Both the position numbers and the translations under genes were made by a program. DNA of 64,000 nt. It comes from a virus (taxonomy: Duplodnaviria > Caudoviricetes). A model generated the notes under the pieces. It was not told where the DNA came from and did no database searches. It saw only the letters and a program-made list of their open reading frames with translations. Numbering within the stretch: the first letter of the stretch is position 1; every line of letters starts with the position of its first letter. This document shows, piece by piece, positions 2,902-48,642 of this stretch. Location: IMG/VR virus record IMGVR_UViG_3300010352_001543, one strand, 5' to 3'.

Positions 2902-3408
2902 TTAAATCTCTTTATCTTCTACTTTTAACCAATTTTTTCTGTATTTTACATCAGATCCGAAAACTACATCTAAATACTTATCTGATTTTTTATTTGTTTT
3001 AATTTTAACCAGGTTCATATCTTTAAAAATAAATTTCCAGTCCTCTTTGTCCATTGAACCAACACCTTTTAAATATCTTAGATTCTTTTTGGTTTTATAC
3101 TCATTATTATCTAAATTATATTCATAGTGTCTTTCTTTATTTTCATCATATGAAATCAACGGCATTATCAATTTATATAATTTGTTTTTCTTTAACACAT
3201 CAGGGAACCAACGGGCGAACAGATTCATTAATAAGGCGGTTATGTGGTTACCGTCACAGTTATGAGAAAGTAAATAACAATTATTAATCTTAATAAAAAA
3301 ATTATTAATTTCATCCACCTCTATATCATATAATTCAGTTTTTTGTTTAATTTTTTTTATTGATTGAGGCTTCATCAATATAAAATCTTCTATTCTTAAA
3401 ATTTCCAT
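2902..3408 (-). CDS. Topoisomerase GyrB-like C-terminal part, preceded by a split-intein C-half (IntC, 3259-3408, 50 aa)
   Basis: LYDIEVD...NFF...LLSHN|C (intein blocks F/G), then CDGNHITALL (TOPRIM) and RYLKGVGS. Confidence 0.92.
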   Translation of the reverse strand: MEILRIEDFILMKPQSIKKIKQKTELYDIEVDEINNFFIKINNCYLLSHNCDGNHITALLMNLFARWFPDVLKKNKLYKLIMPLISYDENKERHYEYNLDNNEYKTKKNLRYLKGVGSMDKEDWKFIFKDMNLVKIKTNKKSDKYLDVVFGSDVKYRKNWLKVEDKEI

Positions 3409-4497
3409 TTAATTTAATTCCATTATAGTGTTATTATCAGTTATCTGATACAAAGCATCTAATAAATTAGTCTCTGTTAGTTTATATGAATCCCAAATGA
3501 TTAAAATAGATACCGGGTTCATTTTTTCTTTAATTTTTTCTAATCGGTTTTTGTCTTTTTTCCATATCTGTTCATATGTCATTTTTGTTTGTTTCAATAT
3601 TTCTGTTCCTTGATATATTGCTGGATTTCCATGCCAATAATCTCCATAATATTCTATTATAACATTTAAATTTGGTAAATAATAATCTACGAAATAATTT
3701 CTTTTTTCCATTTCTACCATATATTCCATGACATATTCAAAATTGAGATTATCTAAGATGTCTTTGATTTTAAAACTTATTTTCGAAGGTCCACTTTGAT
3801 ACTTCCAACTTCGTTTAGAAGCTTGTATTTTTTTCCATCTCTTGGTTCCTTTTATTTCACCAAATCTCTCAATATTTCCGTTTAAACTACTCGAATATAT
3901 TAAAGCGTTAGTCTTATGCTCCCATTTTTTGGTTCCTTCTATAATACCAAACTTATCTATATAATATTGTTTAGTTGAACTATAAGCAATTTTATTATTT
4001 CTTTCCTTATATTTCTCTGTTCCTTTTGATTCACCATAACGTTCTATAAAACCTTTTAAATCACATCTTGAAGTATTTTCTCTAACTCCTCTGGAACGGA
4101 TAAATTTTTGTTCTTTTATCGAAATCTTTTTTAATTTTGCTCCATATTCCATTATACAAGAAATTCTATCGAATTTTATTCCTTTGTTATAAGGAACTCC
4201 CAAATATTCTAAACTTCTTTTATTCAAACATTCTATATCATTACAACTATATACTTCATATGACCTATAGAATGTTTTTTCTGAATAATCTACTGTTAGA
4301 TTAGGGATAGCATCTCTGTTACAAAAAGCACAATTTTCTATTTTAAATTCTGGTTTAATATTTATGAATTCTTTGTCGTAATCTGAAAAATATTCATATA
4401 ATGTTAAATTATGTACTCTTTTAATATGGGAACCTACATAGCTATTATTTGCTGATACTTCTTTGCCACATATTTTACATTTATATTTTTCCGTCAT
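3409..4497 (-). CDS. Free-standing homing endonuclease (N-terminal Zn finger, 'ERYGE.KG' repeats, C-terminal Vsr/DUF559-like nuclease)
   Basis: CKIC...H...H, FVDYYLP..NVIIEYYGDYWHGNP...D..R...IIW; inserted between the two split-intein halves. Confidence 0.85.
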   Translation of the reverse strand: MTEKYKCKICGKEVSANNSYVGSHIKRVHNLTLYEYFSDYDKEFINIKPEFKIENCAFCNRDAIPNLTVDYSEKTFYRSYEVYSCNDIECLNKRSLEYLGVPYNKGIKFDRISCIMEYGAKLKKISIKEQKFIRSRGVRENTSRCDLKGFIERYGESKGTEKYKERNNKIAYSSTKQYYIDKFGIIEGTKKWEHKTNALIYSSSLNGNIERFGEIKGTKRWKKIQASKRSWKYQSGPSKISFKIKDILDNLNFEYVMEYMVEMEKRNYFVDYYLPNLNVIIEYYGDYWHGNPAIYQGTEILKQTKMTYEQIWKKDKNRLEKIKEKMNPVSILIIWDSYKLTETNLLDALYQITDNNTIMELN

Positions 4498-38585: not shown

Positions 38586-39833
38586 ATGGTCCAAGTAGAA
38601 CAACATATAGTTAAAAAATCCAACAAGAACACCGAATGGCAAGTGATTGACCATTTAGCATTCCTATCGAAAAACTTGTACAATACCTGCCTTTGGACCA
38701 CCAAGAATCATTTTGAAGCAACCGGCAAGTGGATGAGGTACAGTGAAATGTATAAAAAGTTCTACAATGAGCAGAATCCTTCTTTCATTGCTCTTCCAGC
38801 TGCAACTGCTCAGCAGATCATGATGGTGATGGACAAGAACATGAAGAGCTATTTTGCTTTACTAAAAATGTATAAAAAGAACAAGAAATCATTAAACGGA
38901 TGCCCAAAGTTTCCTAAATACAAAGACAGTTTGGACGGCAGAAATATACTTATTTTTACTTCTCAACAAATGAGGCTACAAAAAGATGAGACAATTAATT
39001 TTCCAAAGAAAACTGACCTAAGACCACTAAAGACTAAAATTCCAGCTGGAAGCCTGAAACAAGTAAGAATAGTACCACAGTCCAGTTGCTATATCATTGA
39101 GGTTGTCTATGAAAAAGAAGTAGTACAAGCATTTCCACCTAATGATTCCTGGTTGTCTATCGACCTTGGAGTCAATAACTTAATGACCTGTTTCGATACT
39201 GTTTCCATCAAACCAACAATCATTAATGGTAAACCACTCAAATCCATCAACCAATTCTACAACAAGAAACATGCTAAACTACAATCACAACTACAAAAAC
39301 AGTATCCAAAACGACATAAGTCAAAAAAACTAAATAAATTAACAACAAAAAGAAATCGTAAAATTAAAGACTACCTCCATAAGAGTTCCAGGTTTGTAGT
39401 CAATTATTGCTTGGAATCAGGCATCTCTAACATTGCTATAGGTTATAACGCTGAATGGAAACAAAACGTTCAGCTCGGCAGTAAGAATAACCAAAACTTT
39501 GTTCAGATACCTTTTCTAACACTAATAAATCAAATAGAATACAAAGCAGCGTTGCTTGGCATAACTGTTATAAGGAACGAAGAATCCTACACCAGTAAGT
39601 GCTCAGCGATGGACCTTGAACCAGTTAAAAAACATGACACATATTGCGGTAAGCGCATAAAGCGCGGCATGTTTATAACTGGTACTGGTCAACGAATTAA
39701 TGCTGACTTGAATGGAGCCATAAATATTCTTCGAAATGTAGCTGGAGATAAGGAACAAATTATTAAATTTGTTCAAACTCAATCCAGTAGAGGTCAAATC
39801 GTTTGGCCGTTTCATGCATGCATGAATAAATAG
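38586..39833 (+). mobile_element. tnpB: Solo TnpB RNA-guided endonuclease (IS200/IS605-IS607 superfamily), no TnpA nearby
   Basis: SKNLYN, SIDLGVNNL (RuvC-I), DYLHKSSR, NEESYTSKCS, INADLNGAINI (RuvC-III). Confidence 0.92.
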
Positions 39834-44121: not shown

Positions 44122-45531
44122 TTGATAAGTATTGAAAATAATGGTCCATTGTTAGATATTTCATATATTAACAAGCAAGGACAAGTTCAATTAATGAAAA
44201 CAGTAATTCCAGATTCAGAAATGTTTAACTGGGAAATATGTCCAAAGGCAAAACAATACAAAGATTATAGGACGTGGGATGGGCAACCTGTTTGTAAAAA
44301 ACAAACTCCTTATCTTAATAATTTCAGAATATCAGAATACCTAAATTTTACTTTAGAAGAAGAAAAGCGAAATTTAATTTTCGATTATGATACTCCTCCG
44401 AACATTTATTTTATAGACATCGAAACAGAAATCAAGTATGGATTTCCAAATAAAAACAATCCAGTAAACGGAATTGTTTCGATTTCTATTGTTGATGAAA
44501 ACAACAAGGTCCTTGTATTAGGACTAAAAGATCTAACTCCAGAAGAGCACCGAAAAATTCAAAAAGATATAGATGACTATTTTAAAAAGTTTGATCTGAA
44601 GATGGTCTTCAAATATAAGAAATATGAGTCAGAGAAAAAATTACTTATAGATTTTCTTTCTAATTATGTTAGGCACATGGCGGCAATTACCGGTTGGAAT
44701 TTTAAGGAATTTGACTGGAATTATATTATAGCAAGAAGTAAATTTTTAGGTTTGGATCCGTCAATTTGCTCCATCAGCGGAAAATTGGACAGATACGGTA
44801 TTCCAGTTCATAAAATAGTATTTGACTACTTACAATTACTAAAATCACCTACCTCCAGCCTTCAAGACAGATCATCAATGAAATTGGATGCAGTGGCCGA
44901 ACATGGTCTTGGAATTAAAAAAATATTTTATCCGGGAACATTAGAAGAGTTGTATGATAATGATTTCGTGAAATTTATTCTATACAACGCTGTTGATAGT
45001 ATATTAGTCCTCCTCCTACATAGAAAGTACAAAGCATTTATGCCTCAATATAAACTTGCTGAAATTTCTCATGTTGAAATGGGACGTCTAAGTCCAATTC
45101 CGATGTTAGAATCTTCTATTCTCGGATATCTATATCCACAAAACATCGTAGCTGTTCCGATAAAAAAGAAAAGCAAACTAAAACAAAAAATTAAAGGTGG
45201 CTATGTTATGGACCCAATTCCGGGTTACCATTCATCAGTTGCCTGTTATGACTATGCCTCTCTATATCCTACCACTATCAGACAATTCAATATTTCACCG
45301 GATGTTTATTTGGGTCAAAAGAAAGATTTGGAAAATTTAAATCCGGAAGAACATATTGTTTGTGCTTCAGGAGCAGTTTTTTCTAACAAGCAGGATGGTT
45401 TTTATAGAACTATTTTGAGCAATATTTATGAACAACGAAAATTTCATAAGGATAATAAAAAAGAGATTAACAAGGAAATTAAGCGGCTTTCTAGAATCTT
45501 AACGACAAAAAACAAGAAGGATAATTTTTAA
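44122..45531 (+). CDS. Family B DNA polymerase, N-terminal subunit only (exonuclease + motif A)
   Basis: DIETE, GWN...FDWNYI, YNAVDS, KGGYV, DYASLYP; lacks KxxxNSxYG and YGDTDS. Confidence 0.9.
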   Translation: MISIENNGPLLDISYINKQGQVQLMKTVIPDSEMFNWEICPKAKQYKDYRTWDGQPVCKKQTPYLNNFRISEYLNFTLEEEKRNLIFDYDTPPNIYFIDIETEIKYGFPNKNNPVNGIVSISIVDENNKVLVLGLKDLTPEEHRKIQKDIDDYFKKFDLKMVFKYKKYESEKKLLIDFLSNYVRHMAAITGWNFKEFDWNYIIARSKFLGLDPSICSISGKLDRYGIPVHKIVFDYLQLLKSPTSSLQDRSSMKLDAVAEHGLGIKKIFYPGTLEELYDNDFVKFILYNAVDSILVLLLHRKYKAFMPQYKLAEISHVEMGRLSPIPMLESSILGYLYPQNIVAVPIKKKSKLKQKIKGGYVMDPIPGYHSSVACYDYASLYPTTIRQFNISPDVYLGQKKDLENLNPEEHIVCASGAVFSNKQDGFYRTILSNIYEQRKFHKDNKKEINKEIKRLSRILTTKNKKDNF

Positions 45532-45532
45532 A

Positions 45533-47665
45533 ATGAATAAAACAAAATACACCAAAGATGAAGTTTACCAAGCATCTTTAAAATATTTTAATAACGATGA
45601 ATTAGCAACCAATGTTTTTATGACAAAATATTGTCTTAAAGACAACGATAATAATTTTTTAGAATTAATACCGGATGATATGCATCATCGCCTTGCAAGT
45701 GAATTTGCAAGAGTAGAAAAAAATAAATTTGAAAATACTGAAATTGATCCATTAACCGAGAATGAAATTTTTAATCTTTTTAAAGATTTCAAATATATTA
45801 TTCCACAAGGTTCACCAATGTTTGCGATCGGTAATAATTATCAACTTGCTTCTTCTTCAAATTGCTATGTTCTGACTCCACCAGAAGATTCGTATGGATC
45901 AATAATGTATGTGGATGAAGAGTTGGTACAAATTTCTAAAAGAAGAGGTGGTGTTGGAATCGATTTAAGTAAACTCCGTCCAAAAGGAGCTAAGACCAAT
46001 AACGCGGCTAAAACATCAACCGGTATCATTGCTTTTATGGAAAGGTATTCAAATTCAATAAGAGAAGTTGGACAAGAAGGTCGAAGGGGTGCACTCCTTC
46101 TGAGTTTAGACTGCCGACATCCGGAAATAAAAGAATTTATAACGGTTAAGAAGGATTTGACTAAAATAACAGGTGCTAATATTTCAGTCAAAATTTCAGA
46201 TGATTTTATGCAGGCAGTACATTCTAACTCAGAATTTGAATTATGTTTTCCAGTTGATTATAAAGAAAGAGGAATTGTACCACTACATACTGAAAAAATT
46301 AAAGCTAAAGAACTTTGGAATTTGTTGATACATACATCTCATGAAACTGCCGAACCAGGTATTCTGTTTTGGGATCATCAGCTGAATTATTCACCTGCTA
46401 ATTGTTATGATCAATACCGACCAGTCAGTACAAATCCATGTGCCGAGCTCGCACTTTCTCCGCTGGAGAGTTGCCGTCTAATTTCTATGAATCTTACAAG
46501 TTATGTTAGAAATCCATTTTCAGAATGCGCTCGTTTCGACATAGAATTATATCATTATCATTGCATGTTGGCTCAACGACTTTCCGATGACCTTATAGAC
46601 ATTGAAGATGAGATAATAGATAAGATTATAGCAAAAATTAAAAATGATCCAGAAGACTTAAAATTCAAGAGCAGAGAAATTGAAATTTGGGAAGCTATCA
46701 AGTTAGCTGGTACTACTGGAAGAAGAATTGGACTTGGAGCAACCGGTTTGGCGGACGCTATTGCAATGTTAAACTTGTCTTATTCAAGCGATGAAAGTAT
46801 AAAACAAATAGATGAAATATTTAAAACGCTTAGAAATGCTACATATGAGTCTTCTGTTGAATTATCAAGAATATTAGGTCCCTTTGCCGGATATGACCCG
46901 AAAGTAGAAAAAGACAATCTTTTTATTAAACAAATTAAAGAAGAAGCTCCTGAAATTTATAACGACATGTTAAAGTATGGTAGAAGGAACGTTGCATGTA
47001 ATACAATGGCTCCGAACGGTTCATTGAGCTTGCTTGCGGGCGGAATATCATCCGGCATTGAACCTGTTTTTCTCCTTGCTTATACTCGAAGAAGAAAATT
47101 AGATTCCACTTCAACCGAAACTCCAGATTTCATAGATCCACAAGGCGATCGCTGGACTAATTTCCAAATAGAGCATAACACTGTTAAAAAATGGAAAACT
47201 GTCACTGGTGAGACTGACATTAAAAATAGCCCTTGGTTCGGTTCAACAGCAAATGATCTTGATTGGAACAAAAGAATTGAAATACAATCAACAATTCAAA
47301 AATACATTGATCATAGCATTAGTTCATGTGTAGTAAAGGACACCCTTCTCGAAACAAACAAAGGCCTTCTATACTTTGATGAACTAACAAATTTAGATGA
47401 ACTGGAAGAAGGACAATTTGTAAAAAACACAGAATCTGATATTTTAATCAGAAACAAAGATGACCAATTCGTTCCAATTGATTATTTTTATAAGAATGGT
47501 ATAAAACCGGTTACTAAAATTCGACTTAAAAACAATAACCAATTGATATGCACTGATAATGAAAGTGTTTTGGTTTATAATGAATATATTAATGATTTAG
47601 ATTGGAAAATGGTCAAAGATTTAGATATTTTCGACATGGTAAAAATATCAATAGGAGTTAACTAA
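45533..47665 (+). CDS. nrdJ: Class II (B12-dependent) ribonucleotide reductase N-part ending in an intein N-half (47327-47662, 112 aa)
   Basis: SNCY, RRGGVG, GRRGAL, TNPCAEL, MAPNGS, SSGIEP, DHSISS|CVVKDT. Confidence 0.92.
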   Translation: MNKTKYTKDEVYQASLKYFNNDELATNVFMTKYCLKDNDNNFLELIPDDMHHRLASEFARVEKNKFENTEIDPLTENEIFNLFKDFKYIIPQGSPMFAIGNNYQLASSSNCYVLTPPEDSYGSIMYVDEELVQISKRRGGVGIDLSKLRPKGAKTNNAAKTSTGIIAFMERYSNSIREVGQEGRRGALLLSLDCRHPEIKEFITVKKDLTKITGANISVKISDDFMQAVHSNSEFELCFPVDYKERGIVPLHTEKIKAKELWNLLIHTSHETAEPGILFWDHQLNYSPANCYDQYRPVSTNPCAELALSPLESCRLISMNLTSYVRNPFSECARFDIELYHYHCMLAQRLSDDLIDIEDEIIDKIIAKIKNDPEDLKFKSREIEIWEAIKLAGTTGRRIGLGATGLADAIAMLNLSYSSDESIKQIDEIFKTLRNATYESSVELSRILGPFAGYDPKVEKDNLFIKQIKEEAPEIYNDMLKYGRRNVACNTMAPNGSLSLLAGGISSGIEPVFLLAYTRRRKLDSTSTETPDFIDPQGDRWTNFQIEHNTVKKWKTVTGETDIKNSPWFGSTANDLDWNKRIEIQSTIQKYIDHSISSCVVKDTLLETNKGLLYFDELTNLDELEEGQFVKNTESDILIRNKDDQFVPIDYFYKNGIKPVTKIRLKNNNQLICTDNESVLVYNEYINDLDWKMVKDLDIFDMVKISIGVN

Positions 47666-48642
47666 TGGAAACAGTTTATAGTTATGAAGAACTGCAAGAA
47701 ATAACTTTAGGACTTAAAAGAATTCCTATTACTGCAAGGCGGGACAAAAAATCTGCATTGGAATTTATTATTCAAACATTACCATTCAATCGATGTCATG
47801 AGAATCCGGACATAGTTGTTCTGAAAAATTGGGTTGATAATCACAGTGAAAAATATTCTTTAGTTAAATCAATAGAAAAATTAGACGAGCAAGAAACATA
47901 TGATCTTTCAATAGTGGATGGAGCCAGCTATGTGGCTAATGGAATATATTGTCATAACACAATTAATTTACCGAGTAATGTTTCGGTCGAAGAAGTAAAA
48001 CACATTTATGAAAAAGCTTGGGAAACTAAATGCAAAGGAATTACAGTGTACCGAGATGGCTCACGAAATGGAATTTTATTTGAAGACAAAAAACATGAAG
48101 AAGAATTTTCAATTCATCATGCATTGAAACGTCCGAAGGAATTAAGATGTGAAGTCAATCACATAACATTCAAAGGCGAAAGATACTATGTAATTATTGG
48201 ACTTTGGGGAAAGAAATATCCATATGAAATATTTGTCGGTAAAAATATAAACTTGGAAAATGATTCGGTTTACATTCCGAAAGAAATAAAAGAAGGACGT
48301 ATAAAAAAGATTAAACGTGGAAATTATGTCTTGATAGATAATAAGAACATTGAATATCCGATAGCCGGTGAATTATATGACGATGTTGTTGAATCTCTTA
48401 CCCGGTTTGTTTCTTTATCTCTGCGTCACGGTGTCGATATTCTGTTCATAGTGGACACATTAGAAAAATCAACCGGTGATCTTTTTAGTTTTTCAAAAGT
48501 GATGGCACGTACTCTTAAAAAATATGTCAAGAACGGAGCTGAAGTTTCTGGAATGAATTGTCCAAACTGCGGAGGCGAACAGCTGATCAGAGAGAATGGA
48601 TGCATTCGCTGTTTAGACTGTGGCTACTCCAAGTGTGAGTAG
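47665..48642 (+). CDS. nrdJ: Intein C-half (47665-47958, 98 aa) plus NrdJ C-part with TSCPD-like/Zn-ribbon tail
   Basis: TYDLSI..GASYVANGIYCHN|TINLP, KGITVYRDGSR, CPNCG...GC..C.DCGYSKC. Confidence 0.92.
   Translation: METVYSYEELQEITLGLKRIPITARRDKKSALEFIIQTLPFNRCHENPDIVVLKNWVDNHSEKYSLVKSIEKLDEQETYDLSIVDGASYVANGIYCHNTINLPSNVSVEEVKHIYEKAWETKCKGITVYRDGSRNGILFEDKKHEEEFSIHHALKRPKELRCEVNHITFKGERYYVIIGLWGKKYPYEIFVGKNINLENDSVYIPKEIKEGRIKKIKRGNYVLIDNKNIEYPIAGELYDDVVESLTRFVSLSLRHGVDILFIVDTLEKSTGDLFSFSKVMARTLKKYVKNGAEVSGMNCPNCGGEQLIRENGCIRCLDCGYSKCE

Follow-up and report, generated by a model that had tools for sequence, protein, structure and literature searches.

Fractured genes, in which a host gene is carried as two genes with one split-intein half each (IntN and IntC), were described from the Global Ocean Sampling (GOS) metagenomes, and the NrdJ-1 and NrdJ-2 inteins are among them (Dassa, London, Stoddard, Schueler-Furman and Pietrokovski, 2009, PMC2677866). 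One of these loci, gp41-7, is a fractured gene without an endonuclease (PMC2677866). A different arrangement was reported for phage Aeh1, where the NrdA gene is interrupted by the mobE endonuclease gene (Crona et al., 2011, PMC3045599). A few accepted inteins, exemplified by the Tko CDC21-1 orthologues, lack the block-B histidine and do splice (PMC6333167). Here, we analyzed a nrdJ gene at positions 45533-48642 of a 64,000-nucleotide (nt) stretch of viral DNA (IMG/VR record IMGVR_UViG_3300010352_001543), which is referred to below as the window. The gene consists of two overlapping open reading frames (ORFs). It very probably contains a natural split intein, inserted in the class II (B12-dependent) ribonucleotide reductase (RNR) gene of a large phage, which would splice in trans and would be the endpoint of a fractured-gene lineage.

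As in the GOS fractured genes, the host gene codes for a phage nucleotide-metabolism enzyme and is present as two genes with IntN and IntC. Between the halves, its relatives carry a putative endonuclease gene (Vsr-like or PD-(D/E)xK-like) that stands free and overlaps the start of IntC with its 3′ end. The window itself resembles gp41-7 in having no endonuclease between the halves, which, unlike those of the GOS loci with spaced halves, overlap by one base. The NrdJ-1 and NrdJ-2 inteins adjoin the thiyl-radical cysteine, whereas the family described here is inserted at ISS/TINLP (the slash marks the insertion point), ~270 residues downstream. The family differs from the GOS split inteins in block B, which reads TxxE and not TxxH, and in the 98-aa IntC with a helical leader; the IntC halves of the GOS inteins are reportedly roughly 40 aa long. 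The locus shares with Aeh1 NrdA a phage RNR large-subunit gene broken in two by a mobile endonuclease, but the Aeh1 gene has no intein and its halves assemble by short tails, with no splicing. Split inteins in fractured genes are thus a known kind of element; the insertion site, the invariant TxxE and the structured IntC leader are apparently undescribed. A literature search, which was not exhaustive, revealed no TxxE split intein, no split intein at the NrdJ ISS/TINLP site, no glutamate at the block-B histidine position and no split intein lacking this histidine.

Organization of the split nrdJ locus

Both ORFs lie on the + strand. ORF1 (45533-47665, 710 aa) codes for the NrdJ N-extein and IntN. 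The N-extein (45533-47326, 598 aa) ends in HSISS and matches Pfam Ribonuc_red_lgC over residues 109-598, the RNR barrel (E 2.1e-75). IntN (47327-47662, 112 aa) was delimited from the ORF translation, the family alignment and an hhalign alignment to contiguous inteins at the same site. It starts with Cys1, its N-terminal sequence being CVVKDTLLETNKG, contains block B as LICTDNESVL (T76-x-x-E79) and has no histidine at all. ORF2 (47665-48642, 325 aa) codes for IntC and the C-extein. The 98 residues of IntC (47665-47958) end in GIYCHN, and only the last ~36 of them match the canonical blocks F and G, as judged by alignment to the C-terminal end of the mini-intein Spl DnaX. The core with these blocks and with D80, H97 and N98 was therefore placed at 47851-47958, and the preceding ~62 residues (47665-47850) were assigned to a family-specific helical leader with the motif RIPxxxRxxKxxA...N. 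The C-extein (47959-48642, 227 aa), defined by translation, Pfam and comparison with intein-free homologues, starts with Thr+1 at 47959 (TINLP) and comprises a TSCPD domain and a C-terminal zinc ribbon.

At the junction (47653-47667), the TAA of ORF1 (47663-47665) and the ATG of ORF2 (47665-47667) share one A in the sequence TAATG, and an AGGAG Shine-Dalgarno sequence at 47653-47657 lies 7 nt before the ATG. Among the 57 genes of the window, a complete AGGAG or GGAGG precedes only 2, one of them ORF2, so that this site stands above background. The RNA around the junction showed no significant structure (z −0.41). An earlier, sequence-only reading of the window had described a cut at HSISS/TINLP, a 112-aa IntN, the TAATG overlap at 47663-47667 with AGGAG 7 nt upstream, an IntC leader of about 60 aa, Thr at +1 and a block B, CTDNE, without the TxxH histidine. 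All these features were found again, the cut being borne out by the ORF anatomy and by intein-free homologues.

The same architecture occurs in diverged relatives. An exhaustive HMMER search with IntC and 27 extein residues returned many proteins of ~300-345 aa that start with the leader, and at least 20 C-half clusters (50%-identity level) share the order leader, IntC, C-extein. Both halves were recovered as separate genes at nine distinct loci, and in every diverged relative the halves are encoded by separate genes with 16 nt to 1.3 kb between them; this is the outcome of the comparison with homologous genomes that the earlier reading had proposed as a check. A scan of viral contigs detected three family loci with the family alignment as query and gave no match with ORF2 alone. 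A scan for the block-B DNA pattern found only two of these three loci again, along with 7 chance matches. In the GenBank phage collection, the N-terminal part of nrdJ has ~70% nucleotide identity to crAss001-type vitamin B12-dependent RNR genes; a close match was obtained for this part only and none for the intein halves, which gave only weak tblastn matches to inteins in the helicases of Enterococcus and Staphylococcus phages.

Translation of the two half-genes would most likely be coupled, as the stop and start codons overlap and a strong Shine-Dalgarno sequence lies inside the IntN coding sequence. IntN (112 aa) and IntC (98 aa) would then associate into one Hedgehog/intein (HINT) domain. 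Trans-splicing would proceed through a thioester at Cys1, attack by Thr+1 and cyclisation of Asn98, and its product would be an 825-aa NrdJ with the native HSISS-TINLP sequence.

Intein fold, catalytic residues and block B

The assignment of both halves to inteins is supported by sequence comparison. Pfam Intein_splicing matches 16 of 17 C-halves. IntN is homologous to contiguous NrdJ inteins at the same site: hhalign gave a probability of 96.8% and E 2e-10 for P0012, which carries a LAGLIDADG domain, and a probability of 93.5% for the mini-intein P0095. These contiguous inteins (P0012, P0052 and P0127 with LAGLIDADG, P0095 without) share the insertion point IS[KS]/C...HN/T.N.P, and the split point of the window pair corresponds to the place where the endonuclease domain is inserted in P0012 and its like. 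Unlike the window family, they are single polypeptides with an S/T-x-x-H block B and no leader domain. A search of PDB sequences gave no significant match for IntN, and for the IntC core it returned only the Spl DnaX mini-intein (E 0.05).

The catalytic residues C1, T76, D80, H97 and N98 are preserved, and the pair has the position-1 nucleophile and the block G (CHN/T) of class 1 inteins. Among nine family IntN sequences, which are only 32-47% identical to that of the window, ten positions are invariant (C1, G13, Y16, E19, G58, L67, T76, E79, W93 and D103), including the Cys1 nucleophile encoded at 47327. In 17 C-halves, D80, N92, G93, H97 and N98 are invariant, and the +1 residue across the family is Thr or Cys. 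Between L033 and L032, the ratio of nonsynonymous to synonymous substitution rates (dN/dS) is 0.08 in IntN, 0.15 in the leader and 0.11 in the IntC core, which likewise speaks for a functional intein. L003 and P0016/P0029 have their insertion point displaced by one residue (ISKT/C...HN/CNLP), with Cys in place of Ile as +1. The intein-free NrdJ homologues L009, L002 and L010 read HSISS-TINLP or HSISS-TVNLP across the site, so excision would give back the uninterrupted host sequence, and the Ser at −1 belongs to the host protein and is no adaptation to the intein. Opposite net charges of the two halves, which are reported for other split inteins, were not evident here.

For structure prediction with AlphaFold2 (AF2), the relative L001 (37-44% identical to the window) was used, in which the halves share a frame and can be read through. 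This fused query (P0154) was modelled with stops replaced by Gly and with the family alignment A3. The predicted TM-score (pTM) of the model was 0.66. Predicted local distance difference test (pLDDT) scores of ~75-94 were obtained for most of IntN, the leader and the IntC strands; they fell below 50 in the junk linker and at the two ends of the chain. In a Foldseek search, the top 25 matches were all inteins, led by Mxe GyrA (3e-8) and followed by Ssp DnaB and Npu DnaB. VIA-align gave Z values from 12.4 to 9 with a root-mean-square deviation of ~3 Å over 130-150 residues. The NrdJ-1 split intein (8ubs) was aligned with Z 10.3 and 16% identity, the two being alike at the fold level only. The family is thus predicted to have the HINT fold.

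One of two unusual features of the family is its block B. The histidine of this block is the most conserved intein residue and is regarded as near-essential for the first splicing step. In the profile alignment with the same-site contiguous inteins, E79 takes the position of the histidine of S/TxxH. T-x-x-E was found in 10 of 10 family IntN sequences (the nine loci and the strain P0002), in the variants CTDNE, CTSNE, CTANE, CTHNE, STLNE, VTTKE and TTSNE. Among ~195 distinct intein N-domains collected here, the position is His in ~93%, and Glu occurs only in the NrdJ split family. Four contiguous inteins have Gln at this position (GSCNQ, GTPNQ, GTYNQ): P0142, which is inserted at the same NrdJ site, L051, L052 and L063.

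The earlier suggestion of atypical catalysis is supported, at the level of sequence, by this pattern, invariant in the family against a nearly universal His elsewhere. The Glu, or the family-specific invariants Y16 and E19, may stand in for His in activating the N-terminal scissile bond. A precedent is that of the Tko CDC21-1 orthologues, in which an entire group of orthologues likewise lacks the block-B histidine, so that some compensating mechanism is implied (PMC6333167); this residue is common in inteins but not obligatory. Those inteins, however, are archaeal, contiguous and located in CDC21/MCM, and the compensating residue reported for them is something other than a Glu in place of the His; the window family is a split phage intein with an invariant Glu. 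As a diverse natural split-intein family, in which the other catalytic residues are under purifying selection and the block-B Glu is invariant, it offers a natural experiment on first-step catalysis.

Alternative explanations and the IntC leader

Several points weigh against trans-splicing of the window pair by a genuine split intein. Many inteins cannot do without the block-B histidine (PMC6333167), and its absence could therefore mean that the N-S acyl shift is slow or does not occur. The block-F His position is not conserved and is Ala in the window. The fused model represents the relative L001, read through a junk linker, and not the window pair, for which splicing activity is predicted from its sequence. 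The dN/dS ratios between L033 and L032 are approximate because dS is ~1, near saturation. Finally, the five contigs on which the exact ORF1 and ORF2 proteins were each found (JGI, Logan and ENA; the longest of 280,711 bp) may share a sample in part.

The earlier reading had cautioned that a sequencing frameshift might hide a contiguous mini-intein, as one missing base would fuse the halves and other single-base deletions occur in the window. ORF2 lies in the −1 frame relative to ORF1, and the arithmetic of this caveat holds: a single inserted base can join the frames. The insertion would have to fall within 47662-47664, and not at 47660-47661 as proposed, since the frame of ORF2 has a TAA stop at 47659-47661, 4 nt upstream of the ATG. 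That a sequencing or assembly error of this kind, or a programmed frameshift, masks a contiguous mini-intein is nevertheless extremely improbable. The ORF ends are identical on the five contigs from the three sources. They recur in a strain (P0002/P0004, 96-99% identical, on one 39,969-bp contig) in which ORF1 likewise ends in ...ISIGVN and is paired with the same 325-aa protein. P0003, with 49% identity, has its C-terminus at the same place as ORF1 of the window. In addition, the diverged relatives are all two-gene loci with variable spacing, and at the junction, where the frame of ORF2 also has the stop, a proper ATG follows a Shine-Dalgarno site that ranks among the strongest of the window, and stimulatory RNA structure is lacking. 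The split in NrdJ is, on these sequence comparisons, real and old, and annotation should not "repair" a supposed frameshift in the two-ORF NrdJ genes of large phages. Alternatively, the halves could have ceased to splice and could act as non-covalent docking domains of a two-chain NrdJ, in the manner of the Aeh1 NrdA tails. The family-wide lack of the most conserved catalytic residue, the block-B His, would fit this explanation, and there is a precedent in an RNR that an endonuclease gene has fragmented and that assembles with no splicing (PMC3045599). We consider it improbable, because docking domains would not require invariant catalytic residues, whereas Cys1, the block-B Thr, the block-F Asp, the penultimate His, the terminal Asn and the +1 Thr/Cys are invariant among members that are 35-45% identical. 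Moreover, a 210-aa domain retained within the conserved ISSTINLP motif, the place of the insertion, would probably impair the enzyme, and natural inteins without the block-B His that splice do exist (the Tko CDC21-1 orthologues, PMC6333167).

The leader of IntC was predicted by AF2 to form five helices with pLDDT of ~80-90, both in ORF2 alone and in the fused L001 model. Its conserved motif is RIPxEYRxxKxxA...N..(D)I..LASW. A hidden Markov model (HMM) built from the leader only matched more than 35 sequences; every match lay at the N-terminus of a split C-half, and none fell within a contiguous intein. The leader belongs to no Pfam family, and an ESM Atlas search with it gave nothing above the chance level. 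The dN/dS of the leader was 0.07-0.38, which indicates purifying selection. It is kept at loci with and without an endonuclease, with N47 invariant and R19 and R25 near-invariant. Our guess is that the leader aids the assembly or solubility of the halves.

The leader might instead be left over from an ancestral LAGLIDADG or DNA-binding domain that the intein carried, and might persist by inertia with no function today. At its position, the same-site contiguous inteins P0012 and P0127 carry LAGLIDADG domains, and the leader with the core gave a weak phmmer match to the region before block F of LAGLIDADG inteins (L053, domain E 0.004). An Atlas lead to LAGLIDADG_3 (score 0.76) points the same way, as does the fused model, which aligns over ~210 residues with inteins bearing a homing endonuclease versus ~150 with mini-inteins. 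Every one of the LAGLIDADG similarity scores, however, is below significance. The failure of the leader HMM to match any contiguous intein, the purifying selection and the retention of the three residues irrespective of an endonuclease argue against a relic, which we regard as unlikely. In a more far-reaching and rather speculative reading, which we think possible but doubtful, the invariant Glu and the helical IntC domain would together set the family apart as a mechanistic subclass of its own among split inteins. Activation of the N-terminal scissile bond would then fall to a carboxylate instead of an imidazole, and the extra domain would govern assembly or render splicing conditional (e.g., on pH, metal ions or infection timing). 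If true, this subclass would provide an orthogonal, histidine-independent tool for trans-splicing. In practice, a split pair whose IntC is long and structured and whose active-site chemistry differs could be orthogonal to the current trans-splicing tools.

Endonuclease genes of the relatives and genome context

A free-standing ORF of 385-414 aa is located between IntN and IntC in five of the nine loci (L003, L005, L032, L033 and L034), and the same ORF was found directly upstream of IntC in the further C-half loci L035, L036, L039, L042 and L043. The five full copies have 35-38% mutual identity and an N-terminal Cys cluster, and the C-terminal core motifs YRSSWE, YYPDF and IEIKP are kept in all five. 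Pfam Tn7_TnsA-like_N scored 26.7 bits with L005 and 26.3 bits with L032, at a cut-off of 26.5, and did not match L003, L033 or L034. The gene product is thus a putative homing endonuclease of the PD-(D/E)xK type (TnsA-like), whose core scores at the Pfam threshold. Between L033 and L032, identity is 86% in IntN, 84% in the IntC core and 74% in the endonuclease, compared with 61% in the C-extein. A cassette that is more alike than the C-extein is the pattern expected for movement by homing, and it suggests that the cassette of these two loci moved laterally in recent times.

No such gene is present between the halves in four lineages, namely L031 (spacer of 215 nt), L001/L037 (171 nt), L038 (16 nt) and the window (1-nt overlap). 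The endonuclease gene has been lost more than once, since L043 has it and its close relative L038 does not. The earlier view of the locus as a late-stage fractured gene minus its endonuclease agrees with this distribution. The window would be the endpoint of the lineage, with the homing endonuclease gene and the whole spacer deleted. The extant sequences cover every stage of a fractured gene, from the same-site contiguous LAGLIDADG intein, through the split intein with a free-standing endonuclease and the spacer relics, to the overlapping half-genes, and document the domestication of a selfish insertion into a compact two-gene operon.

The genome of L001 is AT-rich, but its 171-nt spacer (3342-3512, the same as in L037) is GC-rich and folds better than shuffled versions of itself (z −2.63). 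A search of the L001, L031 and L038 spacers against Rfam returned no family. The endonuclease-free spacers of L001/L037 and L031 (3253-3467, 215 nt) may be relics of the lost element or a regulatory RNA.

The window comes from a large tailed phage with genes for a tail sheath, a terminase and TnpB. An endonuclease gene at 3409-4497, which belongs to the other fractured gene of this genome, showed no homology to the endonuclease of the NrdJ family beyond CxxC. The TnpB-like gene (38586-39833) lies just upstream of the replication gene block and matches Pfam OrfB_IS605 (E 5e-23), with a Cas12f1-like TNB domain. At 44122-45531, a 469-aa N-terminal fragment of a family-B DNA polymerase is encoded, consisting of the exonuclease domain and the start of the polymerase domain; it ends 2 nt before the ATG of nrdJ and has no intein tail. 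The strain P0002, whose ORF1 is 96% identical to that of the window, carries an additional contiguous mini-intein of ~206 aa at the thiyl-radical Cys site, STNPC/AELA. The corresponding site in the window is at ~46520 and has no intein. The additional mini-intein of P0002 apparently terminates in Asp (…LLSVD/CAELA) and not in Asn.

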